DNA of 64,000 nt, taken from NCBI GenBank assembly GCA_035276765.1, contig DATELH010000002.1:235671-299670 (forward strand). Direction: 5' to 3'. This stretch comes from Candidatus Saccharimonadales bacterium. Its GTDB lineage: Bacteria; Patescibacteriota; Saccharimonadia; Saccharimonadales; UBA4665. Below, in pieces: positions 4,960 to 61,863 of the stretch. Within the stretch, counting starts at the first letter, position 1. Every line of letters begins with the position of its first letter. The position numbers and the translations under genes were made by a program. The notes under the pieces were generated by a model that saw only the letters and a program-made list of their open reading frames with translations, did no database searches and was not told where the DNA came from.

Positions 4960-6207
4960 ATGAATCTTTCTCAAAACCTGACATGGCGCGGACTCATTAA
5001 AGATAAGACGTTTCAAGACGTGGGCTGGCTTGATGAGCCAAAGACGTTTTACCTCGGGGTAGACTGCAACTCCGCAGACAGCTTGGCAATTGGCAACTTA
5101 GCGGTGTTTATGCTGGCCCGGCATTTGGCGGAAGCCGGCTGGAAAACGGTGCTGCTGGTGGGCGGCGCCACCAGCTTGATCGGCGACCCTGGTGGCAAAG
5201 ACGAAGAACGTCCGCTCAAAAGCCGCGAGGAAGTTGCTGCCAACGTGGCGGCCATCAAAGAGCAAGTGCGTCGCCTCTTCGCACATAACCAGTTCGAACT
5301 CGTCGATAATTATGACTGGTTCAAGGATATTGGCTACCTGGAATTTTTGCGCGATGTGGGCAAGCATTTTAGCATGACCGAACTCGTGCAGCGCGATTTT
5401 ATTGCGACACGCATGGGCGAAGGCGGTGGCGGCATTAGTTATGCGGAATTCAGCTATAACCTGATTCAGGGTTACGACTACTACTGGCTGCACAAAAACA
5501 AGGGCGTCGTGCTGCAAATCGGTGGCTCCGACCAGTGGGGTAACATGCTTTCTGGTGCACCGCTCATCCGCAAAAAAGAAGGCGCCGAGGTGCACGCCCT
5601 CAGTATGCCGCTCATAATTAATAAGGCAACAGGCAAGAAGTTTGGCAAGAGTGAAGCAGGCGCGGTGTGGCTCGACCCAGCCAAAACGACCCCGACGCAA
5701 TTTTACCAGTTTTGGATTAACTGCGACGATGCCGCCATCGAAGACTACTTTAAGTACTACACTATGCTTAGTCGCGAAGAAATTGAGCAAATTGTAGCCC
5801 AGCATGCAGCCAAGCCTGCCGAGCGTCACGCCCAACGGCGCCTGGCGCAAGAGGTCACCGCTATGGTGCATGGAGAGCGCGAAACGCGCATTGCCGAGCA
5901 AGTCACTAACTACATCATCGGTAAAAGTTCGGTGGGCGAAGCGAGCGATGAAGCGCTTGAAGCTCTGCGCAAAGAAATGCCGACCGCCAAAGTTACCGAC
6001 ACGGCGCTATTGGCCGACGTGCTCGTAACCGCTGGCTTGACGAGCTCAAAATCAGAGGCGCTCCGGCTGCTGGCCGATAACGCAATTTATATAAATGGCA
6101 CGGCCACTACCAAAGCTGCGCTCGATCCGAGCGACTTCCAAAACGGCCGCTTACTCATCCGTAAAGGCAAGGTGCTCAAAAATACTGCACTCATCGAAAG
6201 GATGTAG
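4960..6207 (+). CDS. tyrS: Tyrosyl-tRNA synthetase
   Basis: 415 aa class I aaRS with a KMSKS-like KFGKS motif, GGSDQWGN, and a C-terminal S4-like domain. A TATACT box lies 7 nt upstream of the ATG. Confidence 0.93.
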   Translation: MNLSQNLTWRGLIKDKTFQDVGWLDEPKTFYLGVDCNSADSLAIGNLAVFMLARHLAEAGWKTVLLVGGATSLIGDPGGKDEERPLKSREEVAANVAAIKEQVRRLFAHNQFELVDNYDWFKDIGYLEFLRDVGKHFSMTELVQRDFIATRMGEGGGGISYAEFSYNLIQGYDYYWLHKNKGVVLQIGGSDQWGNMLSGAPLIRKKEGAEVHALSMPLIINKATGKKFGKSEAGAVWLDPAKTTPTQFYQFWINCDDAAIEDYFKYYTMLSREEIEQIVAQHAAKPAERHAQRRLAQEVTAMVHGERETRIAEQVTNYIIGKSSVGEASDEALEALRKEMPTAKVTDTALLADVLVTAGLTSSKSEALRLLADNAIYINGTATTKAALDPSDFQNGRLLIRKGKVLKNTALIERM

Positions 6208-6216
6208 TGGTATACT

Positions 6217-7107
6217 GTGACGCATATGACAAAGAAAGCTACCAAGACCACCACAAAAAAGCCTGCGCAAGCAGCATCTGCTACCAAAAAGAAACCGGCC
6301 CAAACGGCTAAGGCTAAAGCGCCCGCCCCTAAAAAACCAGCTGCGCAAAATGTTTTGCGCAAATCAGACCAATACGACGACCCAAGCTATAACTATCTGC
6401 ACTACTGGAATGGCCGTGACTACGAAAACGAGGCCGAGCGTATGGCGATCCGTCGCTTGCTCAAGGGCAAACACTTTAAGCACGCCACCGACATCGGCGG
6501 CGGTTATGGACGTTTGTGTATATTTTTGGAGCAGTATGCCGACAAAGTTACGTTGGCCGAACCAAGCCAGCAGCAACTCGACATTGCCAAAGACTTTTTG
6601 AAAGGCCACCCCGAAATCGACCGCAAGCTCATGCAAGCCGACGACATGAAGTTTAAAGACGGTTCGATCGACTTGCTGACCATGATCCGCGTGATGCACC
6701 ATTTGCCAAATCCTGCTACCGAGTTTTCAGAGATCGCCCGAGTGCTTTCCGATGACGGTTACGCAATTATCGAAGTGGCCAACTACGCCCATGGCCGCAA
6801 CCGGCTCAAGCACTTTTTGAAGGGCAGCAAACTGCCGACTGAACCTGTTGATATCCGTTCGGCCAAAAACATGCGTAAAGATGAAATTCCGTTTGTAAAC
6901 CACAATCCGCACACCGTTATCAGCCAACTCGGCCAGGCAGGCCTGAAGATTGAACGTGTACTTTCGGTATCAAACTTGCGCAGCCCTGGCATTAAAAAAA
7001 TAGTACCACGCGGCGTAATGCTCGCCGCTGAAAGCGTACTCCAACCAATGCTGGCCAGCAGCTTCTTTGGGCCGAGCGTATTTTTCTTGGTTCGTAAGGG
7101 CAAGTAG
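6217..7107 (+). CDS. Class I SAM-dependent methyltransferase with a Lys/Ala/Pro-rich N-terminal tail
   Basis: SAM motif I is DIGGGYGRL. The N-terminal ~45 aa are KKATKTTTKKPAQAASATKKKPAQTAKAKAPAPKKPAAQ. The start is ambiguous between GTG 6217 and ATG 6226. Confidence 0.8.
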   Translation: MTHMTKKATKTTTKKPAQAASATKKKPAQTAKAKAPAPKKPAAQNVLRKSDQYDDPSYNYLHYWNGRDYENEAERMAIRRLLKGKHFKHATDIGGGYGRLCIFLEQYADKVTLAEPSQQQLDIAKDFLKGHPEIDRKLMQADDMKFKDGSIDLLTMIRVMHHLPNPATEFSEIARVLSDDGYAIIEVANYAHGRNRLKHFLKGSKLPTEPVDIRSAKNMRKDEIPFVNHNPHTVISQLGQAGLKIERVLSVSNLRSPGIKKIVPRGVMLAAESVLQPMLASSFFGPSVFFLVRKGK

Positions 7108-7130
7108 TCTTTAGTATCAGGCGTGGACCT

Positions 7131-7224
7131 GTGAATACACTTCTTCGAGGCACACTCGGAAGCGCCGGTATGTTACTTTAGATCATACAAGACGACCATA
7201 TGTGCTGAGGAGAAGTGTATTCAC
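7131..7224. ncRNA. Candidate structured RNA element, copy 1 (unknown family; strand unresolved)
   Basis: A 14-bp outer stem GTGAATACACTTCT / AGAAGTGTATTCAC encloses the GCACA/TGTGC helix, the core GCACACTCGGAAGCGCCGG and an inner hairpin GTATG..CATAC. The same architecture and core occur at 60448..60542 with different stem sequences. Confidence 0.5.
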
Positions 7225-7264
7225 ATAGAAAAAAACAGAGAGCGAGTAAGGGTATACTGAAAAC

Positions 7265-9304
7265 ATGAGTGTTCATAGAGGGGAATTGACTGCGCTCAAA
7301 GGCGTTGGAGTGGAGATGGCAAAAAAGTTGGCGGGCTTAGGGGTTAAGACCGTCGAAGACTTAGTTACGTTTTTTCCGCGCCGCTACGACGATTACTCCA
7401 CTGTCACGGCGATCGCCCAGCTCAAGCCGGGACCGGTGACCATTAAGGCTACCATCAAGCAAGCCAAAGGCCGTTACGTGCGCCGGGGCATGCACATCAC
7501 TGAGGCAGCTGCAAGCGACGAGACGGGCAGTGTGCGTATCGTGTGGTTCAACCAGCCGTACCGCGAAACTTCGCTCAAAAAAGACCAGACCTATTACATC
7601 TCTGGCCAATTTGAGCTGAGCCACCAGCGACTGACAATCATGAATCCGTCAATTGAACTAGCCAGCGATTTTCCGGTGAATACAGCGCGGATTGTGCCGG
7701 TATACCGCGAAACCAAAGGTGTTACCTCGCGGCAAATTCGTAAGTTTGTGCAAGGGGCGCTCCCAGCGATTACACAGGCATCAGAAAGTTTGCCGGGCTG
7801 GATTGTGCGAGAGCACAAGCTGCTTTCGCGATCGGCGGCACTCAAAGCAATCCATTTTCCAGCGAGCGGTGTAGAGCTCGAAGCGGCGCGGCGGCGCTTG
7901 GGCTTTGAAGAAGTGTTCAGCCTAACTCTGGCCAGCCTGCTTAATAAGTACGAGCTATTGGCCGACAAGGCGTTGGCTATCCCGTTCAAAGAGCGCCTGG
8001 CTAAGATGTTCGTGTCGCATTTGCCCTTCACGCTTACCAATGCACAGCGCAAGGTCGTTTGGCATATCTACCAAGACATGACAAAAACGCAGCCCATGAA
8101 CCGCTTGGTTGAGGGCGACGTAGGCGCTGGCAAAACAGTGGTGGCGGCCATGGCGGCAGTGATGGCAATGGAGCAGGGATACCAAGTGGCGTTCATGGCG
8201 CCCACTGAGCTACTCGCCCGGCAACACGCCGAAACTATTTACAAGCTGCTGGAGCCGCTCGGGCTTGGTCATCAAGTTGGCTTGCTGGTAGGCGGGCTCA
8301 AACCAGCCGCCAAAACTGCAGTGCAACAACATATTGCAAGCGGCGACGTGCGGTTTTTGGTGGGCACGCAAGCACTCATCCAGGAAAAGGTCGATATGCA
8401 CAAGCTCGGCCTGGTGATTATCGACGAGCAACACCGCTTTGGTGTGGAGCAGCGCAAGGCGCTCATGGCCAAGGCTGGCCACATGCCGCACCTTTTGAGT
8501 CTAACGGCCACACCCATTCCGCGCTCGCTGGCGCTCACGTTGTATGGCGAACTGGATATTTCCGTGCTCGATGTAAAACCCGGCGGCCGCTTGCCGATTA
8601 TCACCAAAATTTGCTCGCCAGCTTCCCGCAAACAACTGTACGAAGAAATTACCGCGGAACTCAAAACCGGCCGCCAGATGTTTGTAGTCTGTCCACTTAT
8701 TACCGAGTCGTCGGCTATCCAGGCTAACTCCGCCGAAAAAATCTACGAGCAATTCCGCAAACGCGATTTTAAGGCGTGGCGTGTGGGCTTGTTGCACGGC
8801 AAAATGAAACCGGTCGAGAAAAACGAAATTATGGAACGGTTTGTGCGACATGAGCTTGATATTTTAGTTTCAACCACTGTGATTGAGGTGGGAGTAGATG
8901 TGCCGAATGCCAGTGTGATGCTCATCGAGGCAGCCGATCAGTTTGGATTGGCGCAAATCCACCAACTGCGCGGGCGGGTGGGGCGCAGCAGCGACCAAGG
9001 CTATTGTTACTTCATGATGAGCGACTCCAAGGCGCCGCCAAAACGCATTCGCGCGCTCGCCACCATCAGCGACGGCTTTAAACTAGCCGATCTCGACCTC
9101 GAACTTCGCGGCCCGGGAGCTATTTACGGCACAAGCCAACACGGCCCGCTTGATTTAAGAATTGCTAAATTAACAGATGTAAAGCTTATTGCCGAGGCTC
9201 GCAAAACCGCCCAAACTGCTATCGAACGCGGCGAAAACCTGCTACAATATCCAGTATTGTCCGAACGCGTTTCATTACTGCGCGCAGTTACCAACCTAAA
9301 CTAA
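7265..9304 (+). CDS. recG: ATP-dependent DNA helicase RecG
   Basis: 679 aa with Walker A GDVGAGKT, the DEQH box IIDEQHRFGV, QLRGRVGR, and an N-terminal wedge/OB region. Confidence 0.93.
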   Translation: MSVHRGELTALKGVGVEMAKKLAGLGVKTVEDLVTFFPRRYDDYSTVTAIAQLKPGPVTIKATIKQAKGRYVRRGMHITEAAASDETGSVRIVWFNQPYRETSLKKDQTYYISGQFELSHQRLTIMNPSIELASDFPVNTARIVPVYRETKGVTSRQIRKFVQGALPAITQASESLPGWIVREHKLLSRSAALKAIHFPASGVELEAARRRLGFEEVFSLTLASLLNKYELLADKALAIPFKERLAKMFVSHLPFTLTNAQRKVVWHIYQDMTKTQPMNRLVEGDVGAGKTVVAAMAAVMAMEQGYQVAFMAPTELLARQHAETIYKLLEPLGLGHQVGLLVGGLKPAAKTAVQQHIASGDVRFLVGTQALIQEKVDMHKLGLVIIDEQHRFGVEQRKALMAKAGHMPHLLSLTATPIPRSLALTLYGELDISVLDVKPGGRLPIITKICSPASRKQLYEEITAELKTGRQMFVVCPLITESSAIQANSAEKIYEQFRKRDFKAWRVGLLHGKMKPVEKNEIMERFVRHELDILVSTTVIEVGVDVPNASVMLIEAADQFGLAQIHQLRGRVGRSSDQGYCYFMMSDSKAPPKRIRALATISDGFKLADLDLELRGPGAIYGTSQHGPLDLRIAKLTDVKLIAEARKTAQTAIERGENLLQYPVLSERVSLLRAVTNLN

Positions 9305-27210: not shown

Positions 27211-29298
27211 ATGGCAGGAACCAAATATAAACTACAAGATCTACGAAACATCGGTATTATCGCGCACATCGACGCCGGTAAGACCACAACCACCGAAGGC
27301 ATTTTGTACCGCACCGGCTTGAAGCACAAAATCGGTGCCGTGCACGAAGGTGAAACCACTACCGACTGGATGGCCCAGGAACGCGAGCGCGGCATTACCA
27401 TCGTGTCTGCCGCCGTAACCTGTTACTGGAAGGGCAAGCAGATCAACATTATCGACACACCCGGCCACATCGACTTTACCGTAGAGGTGGAGCGTTCCTT
27501 GCGCGTACTCGATGGTGCTGTGGTAGTTTTCGACGGCAAGATGGGCGTGGAATCACAATCCGAAACCGTTTGGCGCCAAGCCGACAAATACGGCGTGCCG
27601 CGCATCTGCTTCATCAACAAGATCAACCAAACCGGTGGCGATTTTTATAAGTCACTCGACTCTATTCACGCCCGCCTCAACAAGCGCGCCTTCCCAATCC
27701 ACCTGCCGATTGGGTTCGAGCAGAGCATCAATGGTGTTGTCGACCTTGTTACCATGAAAGCTTACACCTACAAAGAATTCACCGACCACGAATTGGTCGA
27801 AAGCGAAATTCCTGCCGACATGCTCGACAAGGCCAAGAAGTACCGCAGCTTGCTCATCGAGAACGCTGTGGCCGAAGACGAAGCCTTGCTCGAAAAATTC
27901 TTTGAGGTTGGTGAAGACGGCTTAAGCGAAGACGAAATCAAGCAAGCCGTTCGGAGCGCCATTTTAAGTGGCACATTCTTTGCCGTAACAGGCGGTGACG
28001 GCCGCGGTGTGATCGTGGAAAAACTACTCGACCTCGTAACCGAACTTTTGCCAAGTCCAGAAGACCGTGGCTCTGCCTGGGGTACGCATCCAAAGACTGG
28101 CGAAGAGATCGAGCGCAAATCATCTGAAACCGAGCCGTTTGCCGGGCTGGCCTTCAAAATCGCAACCGACCCATTTGTCGGCAAGCTCGCTTATTTCCGC
28201 GTGTACTCGGGCAAACTCCAAGCCGGCTCGTACATCCTCAACAGCTCAACCGGCGAGAAAGAGCGCGTGGGCCGTATCGTCCGCATGCAAGCCGACAAGC
28301 GTGAAGACGTGACCGAAGTTTCTGCTGGCGACATCGCCGCAATTGTTGGCCTGAAGGGCACGACCACCGGTAACACGCTGTGTGAAGCCAACAACCCCAT
28401 CGTGCTTGAATCTATCGACTTTCCCGAACCACCGGTGTCTATCGCCATTGAGCCAAAGACCAAAGCCGACCAAGAAAAAATGAGCATCGCCTTGCAGCGC
28501 CTGGCCGAAGAGGACCCGACTTTCCGCGTGAAGGTCGACGACGAAACTAGCCAGACTATTATTAGCGGCATGGGCGAGCTGCACCTCGAAATTTTGGTTG
28601 ACCGCATGAAGCGCGAATTCAACGTGGAAGCGAACATTGGCCAGCCGCAGGTTGCATATCGTGAAACTATCCGCAAAGATGCCGTCGAAGTCCAAGGCAA
28701 ATTTGTCCGCCAAAGCGGTGGCCGTGGCCAGTATGGTGACGTCTGGCTTCGCCTTTCGCAAAACGAAAAGGGCGCTGGTTTCGAGTTTATCAACTCAATC
28801 AAGGGTGGTGTGGTCCCGGGTGAATACATCAAGCCAGTTCAACAGGGTATTGAAGAAGCTATGAACAACGGTGTGATCGCTGGCTATCCGGTTGTCGACC
28901 TCAAGGTCGAACTGTACGACGGTAGCTATCACGAAGTTGACTCGAGCGAAATGGCCTTCAAGATCGCCGGTTCGATGGCATTGCAAGACGGCGTAAAGAA
29001 AGCAAATCCTGTACTGCTTGAGCCCGTCATGAAGGTTGTCGTGGTGACGCCCGAAGAGTTTATGGGCGACGTCATCGGTGATCTCAACAGCAAACGTGGC
29101 CGCATCGAAAGCATGGAAGACTTGCCGGGCGGCGTTAAGGAAATCACCGCTTTCGTGCCACTGGGTGAAATGTTTGGTTACACAACCAACCTGCGTTCGA
29201 TGACGCAAGGTCGGGCCAGCTCAAGCATGGAGCTCGACCACTATGCGGACGTGCCGCCGCATGTCACCGAAGCCATCATCGCCAAGCACGCTAAATAA
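27211..29298 (+). CDS. fusA: Elongation factor G
   Basis: 695 aa with G motifs [14 protein letters not shown] and NKID-like INKINQ, plus typical EF-G domains IV and V. Confidence 0.97.
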
Positions 29299-29325: not shown

Positions 29326-29356
29326 AAAACCATCTGTAAAAGGGTGGTTTTTCTTT
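29326..29356 (+). terminator. Intrinsic terminator after fusA
   Basis: Stem AAAACCATC / GGTGGTTTT (one G-U pair), loop TGTAAAAG, followed by TTCTTT. Confidence 0.65.
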
Positions 29357-29379
29357 GGCACAAGCCTTATCATGGTTTG

Positions 29380-29670
29380 GTGGAAGATATATCTAAAATT
29401 ACCAAACTCCGCGAAGAGATCGACCGGATCGACGAACAACTAGTGGCGCTTCTGAATAAGCGTGCGCAAGTGTCGCTCAAAATCCGCGTAGCCAAGGGCA
29501 GCTCCAGCATTTACCGCCCCGAGCGCGAAGCAGAAGTCATCAACAATGTGACTGCTGCAAGCAAGGGGCCGCTTTCTGGCGAAGCCATCGCCACGCTGTT
29601 TCACACAATCATTTATGTGTGTCGTAGTATCCAAGAGGTAAGTTTGCCCGAAAAGGCGCCGCGCAGGTAG
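29380..29670 (+). CDS. Chorismate mutase (AroQ-type, monofunctional)
   Basis: ITKLREEIDRIDEQLVALLNKRAQVSLKIRVAK...IYRPEREAEVI matches the AroQ helical pattern. The track start at 29344 overlaps the fusA terminator, so I prefer GTG 29380, which lies 6 nt after TATCAT (29368..29373). Confidence 0.7.
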   Translation: MEDISKITKLREEIDRIDEQLVALLNKRAQVSLKIRVAKGSSSIYRPEREAEVINNVTAASKGPLSGEAIATLFHTIIYVCRSIQEVSLPEKAPRR

Positions 29671-31062
29671 CTATTTGGTTGGCTTAGCCGGCCGGGCAAC
29701 ATACGTGCGGGTAGTGGAGCCGGCCAGCACGGCAGTTTTTCGCGCACGCACAAGTGCGGACACAGGCTCGGCTTGCGGATTGCGCTGCTCGGGTTTCTCG
29801 CCCACATATTGCCGCGTTGTTGCACCATGCAGTACGCTGCCACGCAGGGCATTGCGGTCGGCAAAGGCTTGGGCGATTTTCCGTTCCGGGTGTTCGTCGC
29901 CCAATACAAGGTCGGCCCGAGAAAGCTCGCGCGATTGACGCACGTATTCGGCAATGACCAGCTCGTCGTACAGCTTTTGCGTCTCTTTGGAGACGTTTTT
30001 GCCAGATACAATTAATACGAATGCTTCATCACCGGTAGCGTGTTCTCGTGCATAGGCCATGGGGAGAGCGGCAGCCGGCTCTACCTCAACACCCAACTGG
30101 TCGCTGAGGTAGCGACGGGCTTGTGCCAAACGCAACTTGTCGACCGTTGCAAACGAGTCCACAAAATCCTTATTGGCGGCGACGGCTAGGTTTCGCGCGT
30201 TCAGGCTTTCCTCGGTGATGGCAAGCGCATCGCAATCGGTATCTAGTTCACCTGATAAGAACAGGTCGACCGACTCCTCACCGGCTTGGATTTTAGCTAC
30301 GGCCCGGCCCGCTGCATCGGTGTTTTCGGGTTGCACTGCCACGACTTCAATGTTTGGCCCGAGCTCTCCAGTTGCCTGCGCCTCGCGAATGGGGAGGGCG
30401 ACACCCAGCACCAAGCCGAGCCCGGCCGCCGGCACAAGAACGACTGCTTTTTTATCGCCCTGTCCAAGTCCGCGTGCTTTGAAGTCTTCGACGAGTTCGT
30501 TACCGACACTCAGCTGGCCAGCAACTACATCTTCGTGGCCAAACGGTCCTACAACAGCCACGCCCGGTTCGCCCTCTCGCGCTTCGGCGGCAGTTTGCGC
30601 CAGTTTGAATGTCTCGTGAAAGTGAAGGGTGGCACCACCTTCGGCAAGCGGCGTCGCTTTGGCTTCGCTTGCCGATTTGGGCAGTTCGATCACTACTTCT
30701 TTGCCGTATTTTTTGCCAGCCAGCAGTACGCCACGACCGTGGTTGCCCGTGCTGTAGGTGACGATGGTGTTGGCTTCGGTTTGCATCACTGCGTTCGTAG
30801 CGCCGCGCCGCTTGTATGAACCGCTGTCTTGCTCGTACTCGGGCTTGACCAGCACGGGGCTGCCGTTGAGTGCGTCAACCTCTAAAAGTTCGGTGCGGGC
30901 CACGCCCATTTCGCCGTAAAACTGTGCGCGGTATTCAGTCTCGTCGCGCAGCGGCTGGCCGCGGTCGAGCACTTCGCGCGCCACCACACTGCTATCGGGC
31001 AATTCGGCTAAACTGAGCGGCCTCTCCGCAGGTAGTGGCGTTTGTTCAAGCGTTGCAGTCAT
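29671..31062 (-). CDS. PLP-dependent threonine/serine dehydratase-like enzyme (fold type II) with N- and C-terminal extensions
   Basis: 463 aa with the PLP-lysine context SGSYKRRGATN, YSTGNHGRGV, VAGQLSVGNELVEDF, VVAVQPENTDA, EPAAALPMAY and LIVSGKNV. The SD AAGGAG lies 5 nt before the ATG. Confidence 0.75.
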   Translation of the reverse strand: MTATLEQTPLPAERPLSLAELPDSSVVAREVLDRGQPLRDETEYRAQFYGEMGVARTELLEVDALNGSPVLVKPEYEQDSGSYKRRGATNAVMQTEANTIVTYSTGNHGRGVLLAGKKYGKEVVIELPKSASEAKATPLAEGGATLHFHETFKLAQTAAEAREGEPGVAVVGPFGHEDVVAGQLSVGNELVEDFKARGLGQGDKKAVVLVPAAGLGLVLGVALPIREAQATGELGPNIEVVAVQPENTDAAGRAVAKIQAGEESVDLFLSGELDTDCDALAITEESLNARNLAVAANKDFVDSFATVDKLRLAQARRYLSDQLGVEVEPAAALPMAYAREHATGDEAFVLIVSGKNVSKETQKLYDELVIAEYVRQSRELSRADLVLGDEHPERKIAQAFADRNALRGSVLHGATTRQYVGEKPEQRNPQAEPVSALVRARKTAVLAGSTTRTYVARPAKPTK

Positions 31063-31079
31063 GATTTCTCCTTATAATA

Positions 31080-31108
31080 AAAATCCCCGGAGTTGTTCCG
31101 GGGATTTT
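31080..31108 (-). terminator. Intrinsic terminator of the putative Ile attenuator
   Basis: Minus strand reads AAAATCCCCGGA-ACAAC-TCCGGGGATTTT followed by TATTAT. It lies immediately 5' of the SD of the dehydratase-like gene. Confidence 0.75.
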
Positions 31109-31138
31109 GACTAGCTAAAATTTTAGTATGCCATTAAA

Positions 31139-31195
31139 TCACCCGGCGCTCGGGAGGATAATAATGGCAATAATGTTTTGGCGTGTCACCAACAT
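31139..31195 (-). CDS. Putative attenuation leader peptide MLVTRQNIIAIIILPSAG (18 aa)
   Basis: Hand translation of the minus strand gives five Ile codons among codons 8-13. The stop TGA lies inside the anti-terminator arm. The ATG is 7 nt after a CATACT -10 box. Confidence 0.6.
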   Translation of the reverse strand: MLVTRQNIIAIIILPSAG

Positions 31196-31202
31196 ATGCG
31201 CA

Positions 31203-31231
31203 AGTATGTACCTTAATGCTTAAAAATGCAA
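31203..31231 (-). promoter_or_regulatory. Putative promoter of the Ile leader (TTGCAT-17-CATACT)
   Basis: Minus strand has TTGCAT at 31231..31226, a 17-nt spacer, and CATACT at 31208..31203. It sits back-to-back with the tuf promoter. Confidence 0.55.
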
Positions 31232-31238
31232 ATTTTAC

Positions 31239-31267
31239 TTTACACCGGAGTTAGTTTTCGATACAAT
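31239..31267 (+). promoter_or_regulatory. Putative tuf promoter (TTTACA-17-TACAAT)
   Basis: TTTACA at 31239..31244, a 17-nt spacer, and TACAAT at 31262..31267. The ~70-nt leader ends in AAGGAG. Confidence 0.6.
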
Positions 31268-31340
31268 ACTCTGGTCACTGGTGTGAGTTCTTTACGTTCA
31301 TCCGCCACACAGTACTAAAGTTATAAAGGAGTCATCTTTA

Positions 31341-32525
<1,185 letters not shown>

Positions 32526-32606: not shown

Positions 32607-32689
32607 ACACACCATATATTAATTATGCCGAGAACTCGGTTGTGAAAAACCAACAGAGGTTACGGCATCGCACGAGAAGGATTTACCCT

Positions 32690-33016
32690 ATGGTTGAACC
32701 CAAAAAAGACCAAAAACAACGGATCCGTATTCGCCTGAAGGCTTACGACCACAAAGTAATCGACCAAGCCGCAAAGCAAATCGTCGATACAGCGTTGCGC
32801 ACCGGCGCAACCATTGCCGGTCCAATTCCGCTGCCAACCGACCGCAGTGTCTTTACCGTGGTTAAAAGTCCGAACGTCTACAAAAAAGGCCGCGAGCAGT
32901 TCGAAATGCGTGTCCACAAGCGCCTGATCGATGTCACCGACCCGACACCCAAAACCATCGACAGCCTGACCAATCTCAGCCTGCCTGCCGGTTGCGATGT
33001 CGAAATCAAGATGTAA
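32690..33016 (+). CDS. rpsJ: 30S ribosomal protein S10
   Basis: [26 protein letters not shown]... The start was chosen at the ATG after GAAGGA. The track start at 32642 adds 16 basic residues that are likely spurious. Confidence 0.95.
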
Positions 33017-55646: not shown

Positions 55647-55721
55647 TGGAGCCGAAGACGAGGATTGAACTCGTGACCCCCGCCTTACCATGGCGGTGCT
55701 CTACCACTGAGCTACTTCGGC
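55647..55721 (-). tRNA. tRNA-Thr (anticodon GGU), CCA encoded
   Basis: Hand-folded, with acceptor GCCGAAG/CTTCGGC, anticodon stem CCGCC/GGCGG, loop ATGGTAA and T-loop TTCAATC. Confidence 0.9.
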
Positions 55722-55758
55722 ACATACAATTCTTCGAAGCTCGAGTTTCATATGGTAT

Positions 55759-55843
55759 TGGTGCAGGGTGAGGGATTCGAACCCCCGAAGGCTGAGCCAG
55801 ATGATTTACAGTCACCCGTGTTTGACCGCTTCACTAACCCTGC
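55759..55843 (-). tRNA. tRNA-Tyr (anticodon GUA), long variable arm, CCA encoded
   Basis: Hand-folded, with acceptor GCAGGGT/ACCCTGC, anticodon loop CTGTAAA, variable arm TGGCTCAGCCTTC and T-loop TTCGAAT. Confidence 0.9.
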
Positions 55844-55866
55844 GTGTTAAAGTTCCGGGCAAGGCT

Positions 55867-55942
55867 TGGAGCCGACAGAGGGATTCGAACCCACGACCCG
55901 CTGTTTACAAAACAGCCGCTCTAGCCACTGAGCTATGTCGGC
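55867..55942 (-). tRNA. tRNA-Thr (anticodon UGU), CCA encoded
   Basis: Hand-folded, with acceptor GCCGACA/TGTCGGC, anticodon stem GCTGT/ACAGC, loop TTTGTAA and T-loop TTCGAAT. There is one U-U mismatch in the T stem. Confidence 0.88.
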
Positions 55943-55995: not shown

Positions 55996-57930
55996 CTATT
56001 CTACTTTGGAGAGGTCGAGCACTGTGTTGATGAGTTCGGCATGGCTCCATACCAGCGGTGTCACGCTGATTGCTACACCGCTTTCAGGGTCGAACTGCTC
56101 GCTGAGCATGCCGCTTGGCAGTTGGCGATCGGCAATCCACCGCACCAAGTTCTTAGTCATTTCAAAATCGCCGATACTGGCGTAGTACTGTGCAATCCAG
56201 GCGGTGCAAACAATCCAGGGGTTGCCTTTGTACTGCGATTTTGACAAAAAGTAGCCGTCGTGCTCGAAGCGGATAACTCCGCCGACTGGACTGGAGTTTT
56301 GTAAACGGTCGATGGTTTGCTTGATGGTGCTTTTGAGTCGTGGGTCGTCAAGCGGCAATTTGGCAAACATGAACGGCCCGTAGAAGTTGGAGGCGTCGAG
56401 CGTGTCGTCGTATTGTAAATCGCCGTTTTCTTGCAGCAAAAAGCCCTTGCGGAAATAGCCATCGGGGTGGTATAGGCTGTCGAGGCCATCGCGGATTTTG
56501 TCGGCAGCCTTTTGCCAGCGCACGGCATCGTCGGGGTGGTTGAGCGCTGTTGCCAGTTCAGTGGCAGTTTCGAGCGCTGCGATTACCGTGCAGACGGTGT
56601 AGGTTGAGGTAAGGAATTTTTGCTCCCAAAGGTCGTAGCTGGCGTGCGGCAGGCCGGTTTCGCGGTCGATAAAGTCAGCCATAAACGCTGAACAGCGCGC
56701 AATAAAGGTGTCGTAAAAGCTTTCAATGAAGGCGAGGTCGTTGCTTGCGCGATAATATTCGCCCAACATGTAGACAACCATAGCGGTCTCGTCTTCTTGA
56801 ATGGCAAGCTCTTTGTGACGGCCGTGCACCAGTGGGTGCCACGTGCTGCCGATAGCGCGGTCGGGCTGGTATTTGTGCATGAGGTAACCGTCGCGGTGCA
56901 TGGTGTCGCGGGCAAACAAGAAGAATTTTTTTGCTTCCTCGAATTGGCCAAGGCGAATGAGCGGCCACAGCGCGTAACCAGCGTCGCGCGGCCAGCAGTA
57001 GCAATAATAATCGCGGCCAAAATTGAAGATGCTGGAATCGCCGCTAGCCAAAATGGAACCGCGCTCGTCGCAGTGCGCCTTGATGACGAGCATGCTTTTG
57101 GTGACAGTGTCGCGGTAGGTTTCGGGCACTTTTTGGAGTGTGTCGGCGCTCACCTTGAGCCACTGCAGCCAATGTTCGCGCGTGATGTGGATGCGATTGT
57201 CGATGGGATAATACTTGAGTTTGGTGTGAATGACTTGCGCGTCGCTCTGGCTGTCGGCGGCAATGACCCAATAATCGACGTCGAATGAGGCTTTACCCGG
57301 CGTAACATGCCGAAATCTGAGCACTGAATCCACACCTCCATGTTCGATGGCATTGTTGGACAATTCGCCGTCTTCAGCGTCTTTAAAGGTGCCCGCTTTG
57401 CCCTCGATGGCGTAGTTGCCAATGGCATACTGGTCGAAACTGCCGTCATTCATGAACTTGCCGGCGATGAGCAAACAACAGCGGCCTTTGTAGTCCAAAA
57501 TGTAGTCGTCATCGGGCACGAACATGGCGGTGTCGGCGCGGCCGGCACGCGAAATCTGAAATACTTGGTGCAAGAACAGCCGGATGTCGCGTTCGCCATC
57601 GGCGTCATTGGTCACATGCACACGACGGATGAGCGCGTTGTACTCGGCATCAACGAAATCGGTAAAATCAAGCGTTACCCGTAACTCATCGGACTGCATG
57701 CGAATTTTGCTTACCAGGGCATTTGGCTCAAAATCACTGTTGATGCGCCACGTGCCGTCGTTGGTCCAATGGAAGTTGCCATCCACCCACACACCGATTT
57801 TGTGCTGCGAACTGCGTGCGTTGGTGAGGTTGTCGAGCCCAACGTACGGATAATAAAAGTCATGCACCAGCCCGCTTTCGTCTAAGCCCACGAACAACTG
57901 GCCATTACTCAAAACAACTGGCCGGCCCAT
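55996..57930 (-). CDS. Glycoside hydrolase family 15 protein (glucoamylase / glucodextranase-like)
   Basis: 644 aa with an N-terminal beta-sandwich and an (alpha/alpha)6 catalytic region. Motifs are YCWPRDAGYALWPL, EQFDPESG and PLVWSHAE. Confidence 0.8.
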   Translation of the reverse strand: MGRPVVLSNGQLFVGLDESGLVHDFYYPYVGLDNLTNARSSQHKIGVWVDGNFHWTNDGTWRINSDFEPNALVSKIRMQSDELRVTLDFTDFVDAEYNALIRRVHVTNDADGERDIRLFLHQVFQISRAGRADTAMFVPDDDYILDYKGRCCLLIAGKFMNDGSFDQYAIGNYAIEGKAGTFKDAEDGELSNNAIEHGGVDSVLRFRHVTPGKASFDVDYWVIAADSQSDAQVIHTKLKYYPIDNRIHITREHWLQWLKVSADTLQKVPETYRDTVTKSMLVIKAHCDERGSILASGDSSIFNFGRDYYCYCWPRDAGYALWPLIRLGQFEEAKKFFLFARDTMHRDGYLMHKYQPDRAIGSTWHPLVHGRHKELAIQEDETAMVVYMLGEYYRASNDLAFIESFYDTFIARCSAFMADFIDRETGLPHASYDLWEQKFLTSTYTVCTVIAALETATELATALNHPDDAVRWQKAADKIRDGLDSLYHPDGYFRKGFLLQENGDLQYDDTLDASNFYGPFMFAKLPLDDPRLKSTIKQTIDRLQNSSPVGGVIRFEHDGYFLSKSQYKGNPWIVCTAWIAQYYASIGDFEMTKNLVRWIADRQLPSGMLSEQFDPESGVAISVTPLVWSHAELINTVLDLSKVE

Positions 57931-57931
57931 A

Positions 57932-59146
57932 TTACACCTGCATTCCTTTCTCGCTCAGCCGAAACTTAAGGTCGTGATACGCATTCATAAACGCCACAAA
58001 AGCGTCGTACGGATTTTCGTACGGGCTGAAATAGGCATGGATGTCGCCGTCGTTGAACCATTTTGTGCACATGTAGTAAAAGTGGTCGGAGGTTTGCAGC
58101 TTGCGCCAGTCTTCGATGAGCGTCAGGTCGCCCGTGTGCAGGATTTTGTCTTGCAAAGCGTATAATTCGGTGATGGCCGATGCCTGCATGCTGTTACCCA
58201 GCCAGGCGCTCAGGTCGCGCTCGGTGTCCGCCCAGGTGATGGTTTGCGGCACGTCTACGTGGTCAACCGGCTCAAAATGGTCGATTACTTCGCTCACCGT
58301 CATAAAAGTATGACCTCGTGTTTTGAGCCACTGCTTTGGCAAGTGCTCCAAAAAGTCAAAAATGCCAGAGTCGCGCCACTGGTGTTCGCCAAATGTTTCG
58401 TAGTCCATGAACAAGTTAAAGTTGGTGGCGTCGCCGCTTTCACTGAGCCAATGCGAGAATTTGTCGGCGGTCAACGGCCACTCGCTCCAGTTGTGATCGC
58501 CAAAGCGAAAAGCGATGTCGTCGCTAAGTTTGTAGTTTTTCATGAGCAGCCGGATGTTGTTTGTGTATGCCGGCTGGTATACAAAGTTCGGGCTGCGCCA
58601 GCCCAATACTTTGTCCCAGCCTTCGGTGAGAATGCCTTTGTAACCGGCTTTGTCCGCCCAATAGGCGAGGTCGTTGTTGTACGAAAGTTCAGTGTTGCGG
58701 AAGACTTGCGGCGTCTGACCAAACACTTCCTGCACTTTTTTGCGATGCATCTGCACTTGCGCTTCGAATTCGCTGCGCGAGTAAAAGAATGCCAGGCTGT
58801 GGTGATAGGTTTCGGCCACGATCTCGACGCGGCCAGTGCGCGTAAGCTCTTTGAAAGATTCCAGCACGTGCGGCGCCCAGCGCTCCAACTGTTCTATGAC
58901 GGTCCCGGTAATCGAAAGGCTCAACTTGAACTCGGGATGCTCGTTCAAAAGTTGCAGCAAGTGGCGGTTAGCTGGCAAGTACGATTTTTCGGCAACTTTG
59001 TGGATAATGCGCTCGTTGTTGGTGCGATCTTCGTAGGCGGCGTCGAAATAATTGTGGTCAACACCAGCGTCAAAAATGGTGTAATGCCGCACGCGAAACG
59101 GTTGATGTACGTGCATGTAAAACACGATCGCTTTTTGCTGGCTCAT
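57932..59146 (-). CDS. Glycoside hydrolase family 57 protein (alpha-amylase / alpha-glucan-processing)
   Basis: 404 aa with N-terminal FYMHVHQPFRV, ITGTVIEQL and DYETFGEHQW, typical of GH57. Confidence 0.75.
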   Translation of the reverse strand: MSQQKAIVFYMHVHQPFRVRHYTIFDAGVDHNYFDAAYEDRTNNERIIHKVAEKSYLPANRHLLQLLNEHPEFKLSLSITGTVIEQLERWAPHVLESFKELTRTGRVEIVAETYHHSLAFFYSRSEFEAQVQMHRKKVQEVFGQTPQVFRNTELSYNNDLAYWADKAGYKGILTEGWDKVLGWRSPNFVYQPAYTNNIRLLMKNYKLSDDIAFRFGDHNWSEWPLTADKFSHWLSESGDATNFNLFMDYETFGEHQWRDSGIFDFLEHLPKQWLKTRGHTFMTVSEVIDHFEPVDHVDVPQTITWADTERDLSAWLGNSMQASAITELYALQDKILHTGDLTLIEDWRKLQTSDHFYYMCTKWFNDGDIHAYFSPYENPYDAFVAFMNAYHDLKFRLSEKGMQV

Positions 59147-60357
59147 GCCGCTACTCCTTGCAAGTGCTGGTCGTACACTTTGAACAATTTGTCGGCCGAG
59201 GTATCCCAGGACAGCTTTTCGAACTCGTGATAGGCGTTTTTGTGCAGCTCATCGCGCAAGGAATCGTTTTGCATGACCGCAGTAATTTTGTTGGCCATTT
59301 CGGCCACGTCCCAAAAATCAACCTTGAGGCAGTTGAGCATCACCTCGGAAACGCCGGATTGCTTGCTTACCAGCGCTGGCGTGCCGTAGCCCACAGCTTC
59401 GAGGGCGGTAAGTCCGAATGGTTCTGAGATGGACGGCATAACAAAGAGATCGGCAATGCCATACGAATCGCGCCAATGCTTGCCGCGCTGAAACCCAGTA
59501 AACACGACATTTTTGGCGATGCCGAGATCGGCGCTTAATTGCAGCAACTCAAAATATTGTTCACCACTGCCAACGATGAGAAAAATAGTTTTAGGCACGC
59601 GTGCGATGACTTCTTTGGCGGCGCGCAGCAAGTTGGGCAAACCCTTTTGAATGGTAAGGCGCCCCACGTTCGTGACCACGCGGTAGCCTTGAGCGCGCAT
59701 AGCGGTGAGGTATTTATAGGAATTGTCACTGTCGAGCATTTGCATTTCGTTTGGGTTGATGCTGTTATGAACCACAGCAATTTTGTCGGCAGGAATGTTG
59801 TACTCGCGTACGATGGCACGTTTGGTGTGTTCGCTCACCGCAATTATTTGGTCGGCCATCAAGACCGCTAGCGATTCAATTTCGCGCACCAAGGGGTTGC
59901 CGCCGTACTCGTGGCCGGCGCGGTCGGCTTCGACGGAGTGGAAATGGACGACCAGCGGACAGCCTTTGTATTGCTTGACGCGCAAAGCCGCGCGAAAGGT
60001 GAGCCAGTCGTGCGCATGCACCACGTCGAACTCGCGCCCGCTTCCGCGCACCATGCTATCGACGGCGAGTTCGTACATGCGCTGCTGGCCATGGATATCG
60101 ACCCATTCTGTACGTCCATCGCTGTAGATGTATTTGTAGCTGTCGTAGGCGATGCCGGACTTTAAAACTTCGGCAACGCCTTGCGGGTGTGCCGCGGTGA
60201 CGGTCATGAAGCCAATGTTATGCTCGGCTTTGTAGGGCAGCACAAACTCAATATCGGCACCTTTTTTTGCGAGCGACTTACACAGCTCGTAGCAAGCGAC
60301 CCCGAGTCCACCACTATTATTGGGAGGTAGCTCCCACCCGAGCATCAAGATCTTCAT
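59143..60357 (-). CDS. Glycosyltransferase, glycogen-synthase-like (GT-B fold, GT4/GT5)
   Basis: 404 aa with MKILMLGWELPPNNSGGLGVACYEL, HAHDWLT and the C-terminal EPFGLTALEA motif. It overlaps the GH57 gene by 4 nt. Confidence 0.75.
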   Translation of the reverse strand: MKILMLGWELPPNNSGGLGVACYELCKSLAKKGADIEFVLPYKAEHNIGFMTVTAAHPQGVAEVLKSGIAYDSYKYIYSDGRTEWVDIHGQQRMYELAVDSMVRGSGREFDVVHAHDWLTFRAALRVKQYKGCPLVVHFHSVEADRAGHEYGGNPLVREIESLAVLMADQIIAVSEHTKRAIVREYNIPADKIAVVHNSINPNEMQMLDSDNSYKYLTAMRAQGYRVVTNVGRLTIQKGLPNLLRAAKEVIARVPKTIFLIVGSGEQYFELLQLSADLGIAKNVVFTGFQRGKHWRDSYGIADLFVMPSISEPFGLTALEAVGYGTPALVSKQSGVSEVMLNCLKVDFWDVAEMANKITAVMQNDSLRDELHKNAYHEFEKLSWDTSADKLFKVYDQHLQGVAA

Positions 60358-60556: not shown

Positions 60557-61771
60557 CTATTTAGTTAAGCGTTCGAGGGCGAGCTCAAAAGCGGCTTGTT
60601 TGAGCCCTAAGCCGTTCTTTTCGGCATACTTGAGCATGTCTTTGGTGGCCGGCACCAAAATATCTGTTAACTTTTTGTTTACTTCCGCCTCGCTCCAATG
60701 CGCAGCCTTTTGGTTTTGGTCCCATTCCAAGTACGACACGATTACGCCACCGGCGTTCGCGACTACATCGGGCAAAATGTCTTTCCCGTGTTTGAGCAAG
60801 TACACTTCCGCAGCCTTGCTGACGGGGCCATTAGCAAGCTCGACGATAATGTCGGCCTGGACTTGGTCCATGTTGGCTTCGACCACAGCGTCTTCGAGTG
60901 CGGCAAGCACCAGAATGTCAGCCTTGGCACTAATGATCGCTTCGGGTGCGGCAGTCGGTGTGCCTTTGAGATCGGTAAGTTCTTCGGGGCGGGGCACAGC
61001 GCCAGCTTTGCCTTCAAACTTCTCGACATCAATGCCATCTTGCTTGGCCCAGGTATTTTTGCTATTTGCAATGGCGACTAGTTTGATGTTCGGGTAATCT
61101 TTTAACACTTTACCGAAAAAGTAGCCCACGTTGCCGAAGCCCTGCATAGCTACGGTGAGCGGTTTGTCGAGCAGACCTTTCGCGCGCAAATACTCAACCA
61201 AGGCGATCACGCCGCCACGGCCGGTTGCCGCCTCGCGGCCTTCTGAACCTCCGTTGTCCATGGATTTGCCCGTAAAGCTACCTTTGTCGGGTGCGCCGAT
61301 GGTTTTTTCATATTCGTCAACCATCCAGTCTATGATCTCGGCGTTGGTGTTTACGTCGGGCGCGGGGATGTCCTTGCCCGAGCCAATGTGCGGCGCCAGG
61401 TGCTTCGCGTAGTTTCGAGCTAGCATTTCCACCTCGGCCTTGCTGAGCGCGCGCGGATCAACCGCTATGCCGCCCTTACCGCCGCCCATGGGAATGTTGA
61501 CGGCTGCCGTTTTGAGGCTCATAAGGGTGGCGAGCGCCCGCACTTCGTCGATGTTCACGTTGGGATGAAAGCGGATGCCGCCCTTGAATGGTCCAAGGCG
61601 ATTGTTGTGCTGCACGCGAAAAGCTTGGTATTTTTTGCCGCCCGTTTCGACTTCGAAGACGTGTTCGGCTTCGGCCTCGATTAAGGCTTCGATGGTTTTT
61701 TCGTCATATCCTAATCTTTGAGCCGCCTCCCGGATAGTGGCTTGGGCGGTCGCTAGCATTGATTTACTCAT
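60557..61771 (-). CDS. gdhA: Glutamate dehydrogenase (Glu/Leu/Phe/Val dehydrogenase family)
   Basis: Motifs KGGIRFHP, PMGGGKGG and a GFGNVG Rossmann motif. I prefer the start at MSKSML... (61771) because TATACT (61784..61779) lies 7 nt upstream. The track start is 61855. Confidence 0.9.
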   Translation of the reverse strand: MSKSMLATAQATIREAAQRLGYDEKTIEALIEAEAEHVFEVETGGKKYQAFRVQHNNRLGPFKGGIRFHPNVNIDEVRALATLMSLKTAAVNIPMGGGKGGIAVDPRALSKAEVEMLARNYAKHLAPHIGSGKDIPAPDVNTNAEIIDWMVDEYEKTIGAPDKGSFTGKSMDNGGSEGREAATGRGGVIALVEYLRAKGLLDKPLTVAMQGFGNVGYFFGKVLKDYPNIKLVAIANSKNTWAKQDGIDVEKFEGKAGAVPRPEELTDLKGTPTAAPEAIISAKADILVLAALEDAVVEANMDQVQADIIVELANGPVSKAAEVYLLKHGKDILPDVVANAGGVIVSYLEWDQNQKAAHWSEAEVNKKLTDILVPATKDMLKYAEKNGLGLKQAAFELALERLTK

Positions 61772-61863
61772 GCCAACCAGTATAGCGCCGGCCCGCCAGC
61801 CTCCGCACCGTTTTAAACACAACGGTTTTTCGGAGGACCAGCCTCGTCCTCCCACGATCTGCT

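Follow-up and report, generated by a model that had tools for sequence, protein, structure and literature searches.

Leader-peptide transcription attenuation is exemplified by the enterobacterial ilvGMEDA (ilvL), thr, his and trp leaders, in which a short open reading frame (ORF) carries a run of codons for the regulatory amino acid and ends in a stop codon at which an unstalled ribosome covers segment 2 of the leader RNA, the helices 1:2, 2:3 and 3:4 are mutually exclusive, and a terminator stands just before the first structural gene. Threonine deaminase, encoded by ilvA, is among the enzymes under ilvL control. The element described here lies in a 64-kb stretch of DNA (contig DATELH010000002.1; the whole stretch is called the window below) from Candidatus Saccharimonadales, a lineage within the Candidate Phyla Radiation (CPR), upstream of a gene for a threonine-deaminase-like pyridoxal 5′-phosphate (PLP) enzyme, the PALP gene. 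It shares with the enterobacterial leaders the codon run, the segment-2-masking stop codon, the three exclusive helices, as predicted, and the terminator before the gene, and on sequence grounds it is likely to be a transcription attenuator of the ribosome-mediated, leader-peptide type with charged tRNA-Ile as its signal. Whereas the enterobacterial leaders are led by a Shine-Dalgarno sequence and belong to Rfam families, the Saccharimonadales leader is probably translated from a leaderless transcript and scores below the Rfam threshold.

Two systems from other bacteria come with a leaderless type of leader ORF. For the leader peptide IlvL of the Corynebacterium glutamicum ilvBNC operon (MTIIRLVVVTARRLP), translation is described as independent of a ribosome-binding site, transcription as starting at a distance of 1 nt from the start codon, and the logic of the leader as one of three hairpins: an anti-antiterminator, an antiterminator and a terminator (PMC11857589, citing Morbach et al. 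2000). The two are alike as branched-chain leader-peptide attenuators with three-hairpin logic, with a leaderless start predicted here, but IlvL mixes Ile, Val and Leu codons whereas the Saccharimonadales run is of Ile only, the ilvBNC attenuator controls a common-pathway operon and not a single threonine-deaminase-like gene, and its leader RNA has 292 nt as against about 120 nt; the leaders show no sequence similarity, and the host here belongs to the CPR. In mycobacteria, polycysteine leaderless short ORFs attenuate the downstream operon in response to Cys (bioRxiv 10.1101/834739). They are likewise leaderless-type short ORFs with a run of codons for a single amino acid, the sensed one being Cys there and, as proposed, Ile here. 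The mycobacterial ORFs reportedly act largely without a canonical intrinsic terminator, whereas a strong one is present in the Saccharimonadales leader.

A search of the whole window at the Rfam gathering scores returned four tRNAs only. A permissive search of the leader region yielded sub-threshold noise. The best match in it, at 31075-31170 on the minus strand, was to His_leader (RF00514) over the full model length, with 27.6 bits against 49 (E = 0.012). Membership in the Rfam leader families (His_leader, Thr_leader, Leu_leader and others) or in the T-box class was rejected, the gathering threshold not being reached. The element carries the testable hallmarks of a leader-peptide attenuator and lies outside any Rfam family. 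A search of a full-text library turned up no publication that links Patescibacteria to transcription attenuation, nor one on an attenuator-type leader peptide in Saccharibacteria; the element would be the first leader-peptide attenuator that we could find for the CPR.

Organization of the leader and its predicted alternative helices

The leader occupies the divergent intergenic region between the PALP gene and tuf and is read on the minus strand. A preliminary description, made from the letters of the window alone, had placed the promoter, leader ORF, segment 2, terminator and gene start, and all of these coordinates are exact (Table 1). The leader codons read ATG TTG GTG ACA CGC CAA AAC ATT ATT GCC ATT ATT ATC CTC CCG AGC GCC GGG TGA. 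A six-codon window with at least five Ile codons occurs once in the six frames of the 64 kb, where 0.025 are expected on average and 2% of first-order Markov simulations have any.

The leader TGA is followed after a 30-nt linker by the terminator hairpin AAAATCCCCGGA / acaac / TCCGGGGATTTT at 31108-31080 on the minus strand, with further T beyond it. From the terminator to the PALP ATG there are 21 nt in the window and 21-50 nt in the relatives described below, and since this gap leaves no space for a separate promoter, expression of the PALP gene requires read-through. A consensus terminator scan of the window did not list the leader terminator, because the A/U extensions of the stem consume the T-tract that the scan counts; the same terminator was picked up by the scan in one relative, L009. 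Intrinsic terminators of like style follow other genes of the window, for example after rpsJ and before 50403, and the leader terminator is therefore of a type native to this genome.

The minimum free energy (MFE) of the 177-nt leader region is -49.7 kcal/mol (z = -3.75), a stability that none of 200 shuffles reached. The unconstrained fold, one of the checks put forward in the preliminary description, contains the terminator and, upstream of it, the 1:2 hairpin. The latter is an 8-bp stem of UGCCAUUA (31169-31162) with UAAUGGCA (31136-31129) which encloses the pairings AUC/GAU and CCCG/CGGG, and its 5′ strand is formed by Ile codons 2-5. Its energy of -18.6 kcal/mol in the window (-11.9 to -17.3 kcal/mol in relatives) does not fit the "weak" upstream pairing that had been assumed at first. 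For the antiterminator, the pairing of segment 2 with the 5′ half of the terminator proposed at the same time holds, but it is longer than the 10 bp given there: UGGC, the 3′ strand of 1:2, pairs in addition with a conserved GCCA/ACCA-like element directly before segment 3. For the window, the antiterminator comes out at -17.9 kcal/mol (z = -2.4 against dinucleotide shuffles) when the RNA is cut off ahead of segment 4 and the Ile codons are occupied by a ribosome.

Conservation of the leader and of its predicted switch

The comparison covered 11 further loci, which together with the window gave ten distinct canonical leaders (window, L013, L015, L003, L005, L001, L006, L011, L009 and L012) and a divergent one (L016). 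Loci were drawn from the DNA of eight PALP clusters, one GTDB representative, one JGI metagenome contig (L013) and the members L015 and L016 of a second PALP family (family B). The leader was present in every relative with retrievable upstream DNA (P0029 being outside the sample), no relative lacked it, and all 11 leader versions stand upstream of threonine-deaminase-like PLP genes. Relatives that keep the dehydratase gene but have lost the leader, which the preliminary description had named as counter-evidence, were thus not seen. A scan of species-representative genomes with a single PALP protein gave no match, the same scan with the family profile found one locus with a leader identical to that of L001, and a metagenome scan with the leader DNA pattern found one locus, L013. 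The leader element is rare.

Folding of the leaders was constrained by blocking the 5′ part of each leader up to 11 nt past the A-site codon, and co-transcriptional folding was represented by cutting the RNA just after segment 3, as it would be before the synthesis of segment 4. With the ribosome on Ile codons 1-4, the MFE structure of the truncated RNA is the 2:3 antiterminator in 10 of 10 canonical leaders (-13.9 to -19.6 kcal/mol), which in all ten is stabler than in dinucleotide shuffles of the upstream part (z = -1.8 to -3.7; no more than 15 of 300 shuffles equal it). Once the ribosome is placed on the stop codon, 0 to -1.5 kcal/mol of structure is left, so the 3:4 terminator (-14.4 to -19.4 kcal/mol across the ten) is unopposed; blocking segment 2 in this way, another check suggested beforehand, removes the antiterminator and leaves no competitor to the terminator. 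The 1:2 / 2:3 / 3:4 logic set out in the preliminary description is thus predicted for the window and for every relative with fetched upstream DNA.

The start codon, the Ile run and the stop codon retain their frame and their place with respect to the helices. The motif ATTATTG(C/T)NATTATT is invariant in the ten canonical leaders, homologous leader ORFs of 17-23 codons are found in all ten with the Ile run always in frame, and the distance from the ATG to the run is 21 nt, except in L009 and L012, where it is 24 nt. Free variation is seen in codons 2-7, and the peptides begin with MLVTRQN, MLVQNHV, MLVHNKA, MLVARQT, MLVTSQT, MSTVNRV, MLRANNQ, MMRINAQ, MSCNRSQM or MSCTSSQM. Non-triplet indels occur after the Ile run, and the frame then ends at the overlapping UGA or UAA of GUGAUUUAA, except that the stop in L001 lies 12 nt farther on than those; in all ten versions the leader stop is inside or just past segment 2. 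The core of the terminator stem, UCCCCGG/CCGGGGA, is likewise invariant, while there is no fixed loop sequence (acaac, aaac, aacaacc, aaauc, aau, caacc, ccauaa, auaaaua, aacacca). The three-way constraint, in which segment 2 mimics segment 4 and both match segment 3, may together with coding explain the frozen leader sequence. Ile codons in the canonical leaders are 45 ATT and 4 ATC, whereas the long ORFs of the window use ATC in 53% and ATT in 40%; wobble reading of AUU may sharpen the Ile sensor. The divergent leader of L016 (341-512), which precedes a family-B PALP gene, contains an ORF of 38 codons whose ATG is preceded at 6 nt by AAAGG. This ORF has six scattered Ile codons, with one II pair just before CCCG..CGGG; a strong terminator is present, and an antiterminator is predicted only with the ribosome on the II pair.

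The start of the leader ORF is kept by different means in different lineages. TTGCAT (TTGCTT in L013)-17-CATACT is present in the window, L001, L003, L005, L011, L013 and L015, including L011 with its different genomic context, and the gap between CATACT and ATG is exactly 7 nt in the seven lineages with a variable gap sequence. In L009 and L012 the unrelated TTTACA-17-GACAAT, detected by the promoter scan, is found 6 nt before the ATG, and L006 has AGGAGG 9 nt before the ATG in place of the -10-like box. A -10-like box therefore stands 6-7 nt before the ATG in nine of the ten canonical leaders and a Shine-Dalgarno sequence in the other, and that the ATG is served in three different ways, by two unrelated promoters and one Shine-Dalgarno sequence, argues that it is used. 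For the window leader the scan-listed alternative TCGAAA-18-TAAAAT, which would give a 30-nt 5′ untranslated region, was rejected as the main promoter because it coincides with the -35 region of tuf on the opposite strand and is missing in L011, where TTGCAT-17-CATACT-7-ATG persists.

This spacing is common in the window. Of its 58 long ORFs, 10 have a TAnnnT box that ends 6-7 nt short of the first ATG, as against about one at other spacings, and most of the ORFs with leaderless-type spacing are recognisable genes (tyrosyl-tRNA synthetase, RecG, a PfkB kinase, a DNA polymerase III delta′-like protein, a GDH-like protein). Starts 6-7 nt after a TATACT/TACAAT-like -10 box, without a Shine-Dalgarno sequence, are found at 4960, 6226, 7265, 14196 (minus strand), 17362, 50418, 53375 and 61771 (minus strand). 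Leaderless initiation looks routine in this genome, and the leader transcript is probably leaderless too, as suggested by the spacing of its -10 box and the pattern of gene starts. The preliminary description was right on the ATG 7 nt after the -10 box, but a leaderless leader peptide is less unusual than it had held, given the same spacing at window genes and the precedents in Corynebacterium and Mycobacterium.

The enzyme below the leader and its surroundings

Table 1 Features of the leader region and neighbouring genes in the window.
Feature	Position	Strand	Remarks
-35-like hexamer TTGCAT	31226..31231	-	17-nt spacer to the -10-like hexamer
-10-like hexamer CATACT	31203..31208	-	7 nt (tgcgcat), then the leader ATG; implies a leaderless transcript
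Leader ORF, 18 codons and TGA	31139..31195	-	encodes MLVTRQNIIAIIILPSAG; ATG 31195-31193, TGA 31141-31139
Ile run ATT ATT GCC ATT ATT ATC	31157..31174	-	5 Ile in 6 codons
Segment 2, CCGGGTGATTT	31136-31146	-	spans the leader stop codon
1:2 hairpin, predicted anti-antiterminator and possible pause hairpin	31129..31169	-	in the MFE fold, centroid fold and RNAalifold consensus
2:3 predicted antiterminator	31098..31146	-	CCGGG-U-GAUUU..UGGC with GUCA-AAAUC-CCCGG
3:4 predicted intrinsic terminator	31076..31108	-	12-bp stem, loop ACAAC, U-tract; -19.1 kcal/mol
Shine-Dalgarno sequence AAGGAG of the PALP gene	31068..31073	-	6 nt after the U-tract
PALP gene, 463 aa	29671-31062 (ATG at 31062)	-	putatively regulated gene
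Chorismate mutase gene (AroQ)	29344-29670	+	convergent with and abutting the PALP gene; conserved neighbour
fusA	27211-29298	+
tuf promoter TTTACA-17-TACAAT	31239-31267	+	divergent; from the consensus promoter scan, 10/12 matches, near-consensus
tuf	31341-32525	+
rpsJ	32642-33016	+

The protein encoded below the leader is 100% identical to HKR81799.1 from a Candidatus Saccharimonadales metagenome-assembled genome, in agreement with the reduced-genome, CPR-like host guessed in the preliminary description. Its only Pfam domain is PALP (residues 52-354, 4e-42). NCBIfam models for EutB, serine/threonine dehydratases and IlvA match it with 80-113 bits against cut-offs of 330-800, short by a factor of 3-4, and these matches end at the catalytic domain. 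A profile search of PDB sequences placed the threonine deaminase 1ve5, serine racemase and IlvA on top. The AlphaFold model has a mean predicted local distance difference test score (pLDDT) of 78, mostly above 85 over residues 12-386 and below 50 over 387-463, and Foldseek matched it best to the catalytic domains of E. coli IlvA and other threonine deaminases (E = 4e-19, target-normalised template modelling (TM) score of about 0.8), with serine racemases next. The motif SYKRRGA with the catalytic Lys, STGNHG, the Gly loop and EPAAALP are invariant in the family. As in IlvA and TdcB, there is a catalytic domain of PLP fold type II with the catalytic Lys motif, but the protein is only 25-29% identical to them, and the low-confidence tail takes the place of the ACT-like domain of IlvA: no Pfam domain was found past residue 354, and no ACT-like C-terminal regulatory domain for binding Ile or Val. 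As far as these models and profiles go, the enzyme is threonine-deaminase-like at the level of fold and superfamily only and is not demonstrably IlvA. The preliminary description had found Ile control of a threonine dehydratase coherent; the fold and profile searches favour the enzyme type, but the identity as IlvA was not borne out at the equivalog cut-offs.

The tail itself (residues ~387-463; 29671-29900) is long, basic and of low confidence, and ends in a motif common to the family, (L/W)AG(A/S/T)T..R..(Y/L)V; it could be an interaction or export signal. Since the enzyme is without the Ile-binding domain of IlvA, feedback by Ile would act on transcription and not by allostery. That attenuation would replace the missing allosteric domain, and that a leader with codons for Ile only would suit the single reaction belonging to the Ile branch alone, are coherent but inferred propositions. 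The family is very small, with 8 clusters at 44-66% identity among 5.8 billion proteins, and no member turned up outside the Saccharimonadales-type loci of this comparison.

The PALP proteins below the leaders are 44-66% identical, except those of L013 and L015, which belong to another PALP subfamily with 25% identity. L013 has the layout of the window (tuf / leader / PALP gene / chorismate mutase gene / fusA), and its EF-Tu is 96%, its chorismate mutase 67% and its PALP protein 25% identical to the window counterparts. This PALP protein defines a second small family, P0028-P0031 (481-482 aa), whose members L015 and L016 also have an Ile leader. Compared with the window at 29671-31195, L013 at 6783-8371 and L015 at 435-2022 have nearly the same leader and a PALP gene of a different family. 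The regulated gene thus appears, from these comparisons, to have been swapped in place beneath a conserved leader.

The cassette of chorismate mutase gene, PALP gene and leader (29344-31340) interrupts the otherwise conserved str-operon order between fusA and tuf, and the promoters of tuf and of the leader stand back to back on opposite strands, the tuf promoter lying 8 nt from the leader -35 hexamer. The stop codons of the chorismate mutase and PALP genes are adjacent in the window (29670/29671), and an AroQ-type chorismate mutase gene convergent with the PALP gene, usually abutting, is also found in L003, L005, L006, L009, L013 and L015. The linkage is kept also in loci outside the fusA-tuf context, and in L009 a MarR gene stands between the two. 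A literature search on threonine dehydratase and chorismate mutase of Saccharibacteria found nothing specific. The remaining content of the window comprises ribosomal proteins, rpoBC, aminoacyl-tRNA synthetases and enzymes of sugar polymers. Not expected in a reduced genome are genes of the GH15, GH57 and GT4 (glycogen/starch synthase-like) types, clustered at 55996-60357 (minus strand), and, beside them, a Glu/Leu/Phe/Val-type amino-acid dehydrogenase gene at 60557-61855 (minus strand). A cluster of tRNA-Thr(GGT), tRNA-Tyr(GTA) and tRNA-Thr(TGT) lies at 55647-55942 (minus strand), distant from tuf, and no tRNA-Ile gene was found in the 64-kb window.

Proposed mechanism, alternatives and biological implications

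A possible course of events can be outlined, with the structures taken from computation; the position of the transcription start site, translation of the ORF, the stall and the choice between termination and read-through in vivo are steps that we infer. Transcription would start on the A of the leader ATG (31195) or on a nucleotide beside it, driven by TTGCAT-17-CATACT, and a 70S ribosome would initiate on the 5′-terminal AUG and translate the 18-codon leader. With Ile-tRNA plentiful, the ribosome would reach the UGA in segment 2 and cover that segment, the 3:4 terminator would form and RNA polymerase would halt 21 nt before the PALP gene. With Ile-tRNA scarce, the ribosome would stall on the five wobble-read AUU/AUC codons with the 1:2 hairpin melted, and segment 2, left free, would pair with segment 3 before segment 4 is made, so that no terminator would form and the PALP gene would be transcribed. 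Without any translation, 1:2 would form in the window sequence and termination would follow.

Several observations weigh against such an attenuator. When the full-length RNA is folded at equilibrium with the Ile codons occupied by the ribosome, the terminator remains the preferred structure in four of the nine sequences (window, L001, L006 and L011), whose antiterminator emerges only after truncation of the RNA, and the switch model consequently depends on co-transcriptional kinetics. The compensatory changes that the preliminary description had proposed as a check on the 2:3 and 3:4 helices were not found, either in the RNAalifold consensus (0 double changes in 21 pairs) or by counting antiterminator pairs (0 compensatory double changes in 10 pairs, 91% of cells being paired in 10 sequences), and pairing is kept through conservation of the sequence; one change alone looks compensatory, from UGGC/GCCA to UAGC/GCUA, and it concerns L006 and its inner antiterminator stem, a stem which is not in register under MAFFT and was inspected sequence by sequence. 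The leader sequences come from one clade and are hence non-independent, and the near absence of synonymous variation among the Ile codons (45 ATT, 4 ATC) could equally reflect constraint at the RNA level. The leader promoter matches the sigma-70 consensus at 8 of 12 positions, and the consensus promoter scan of the window did not list it. On the side of the enzyme, the best IlvA models give 98.9 against 411 and 98.7 against 577 bits, and the protein is accordingly no curated IlvA equivalog. Finally, a search for other ilv genes in the 64-kb window found none and Saccharibacteria are generally described as amino-acid auxotrophs, so that any physiological sense of Ile control is putative.

RNA-level constraint would be equally expected of an attenuator controlled by a metabolite or a protein, that is, a riboswitch or the target of an RNA-binding protein in which a ligand sets the 1:2/2:3/3:4 switch and the ORF is incidental. 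The helices, together with the unpaired AUUAU before the stem and GGCAUAC, are indeed conserved without synonymous drift, but no Rfam family is reached at the gathering score, the best sub-threshold match, His_leader, being itself a leader-peptide attenuator, and an incidental ORF would hardly keep its ATG at 21 or 24 nt through variable sequence. Neither a promoter 6-7 nt from the ATG in two unrelated versions, with a Shine-Dalgarno sequence in a third, nor a stop codon within segment 2 in two frames would be expected of it, and a ligand-controlled switch is considered very unlikely. Less probable again is an independent small gene that has a promoter and a terminator of its own and yields a hydrophobic micro-protein or a small RNA; the Ile run would then belong to a functional peptide, and the PALP gene would be expressed by constitutive leakage through that terminator. 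Promoter, ORF and terminator do make up a complete unit of about 120 nt, IIAIII is hydrophobic and the nucleotide sequence of the Ile run is invariant; however, the peptide outside the run is unconserved (MLVTRQN, MSTVNRV, MLRANNQ, MSCNRSQM, MMRINAQ) and its C-terminus switches frame between relatives. Moreover, the unit is always joined to a threonine-deaminase-like gene, even after replacement of that gene by a 25%-identical one, and every relative has a segment 2 that imitates segment 4, a feature that a plain small gene could do without.

The stall could also control translation of the PALP gene or stability of its mRNA, or the hairpin could mainly insulate the divergent tuf promoter region or stop antisense transcription. 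The leader promoter stands back to back with that of tuf, and the hairpin is symmetric (A-tract, stem, U-tract) and could work on both strands, yet the plus-strand stem is followed only by UUUUG, and L006, L009 and L011 retain the hairpin without having tuf next to it. The Shine-Dalgarno sequence AAGGAG lies outside the hairpin and is unsequestered in every predicted fold, which speaks against translational control, and this explanation is the least credible of all those considered.

Given attenuation by the leader peptide, a far-reaching and rather improbable extension is that CPR epibionts monitor the charging of their own tRNA-Ile with a leaderless attenuator and, in response, switch on an allosterically unregulated deaminase that feeds or deregulates a pathway completed by the host, so that Ile hunger would trigger manipulation of host metabolism. 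It takes as its premise a stand-alone deaminase that is always paired with chorismate mutase in an organism without the rest of the Ile pathway; the enzymes might feed or deregulate a host-completed pathway because the reactions that they carry out are the first committed ones on the way to Ile and to Phe/Tyr and are normally subject to feedback inhibition. On this view, retention of the leader while the enzyme was exchanged for one with 25% identity would point to selection acting on the regulated function. If true, it would be the first ribosome-mediated attenuator in the CPR and would imply tight coupling of transcription and translation.

Gene regulation in the CPR/Patescibacteria is almost uncharted, and what sets the Saccharimonadales leader apart is its host lineage, the routine leaderless context, the orphan enzyme that it would control and its survival of an apparent exchange of the gene below it. 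The element is short, self-contained and amenable to tests in vitro or in a heterologous host competent for leaderless initiation. A Saccharimonadales-restricted pair of threonine-deaminase-like families with expression tied to the Ile supply would provide a handle on the starvation response of an epibiont. If the attenuator is real, minimal CPR cells would couple translation to transcription termination in the classic manner, leaderless mRNA initiation would be routine in them, and they would sense the shortage of a specific amino acid that is thought to be derived from the host.

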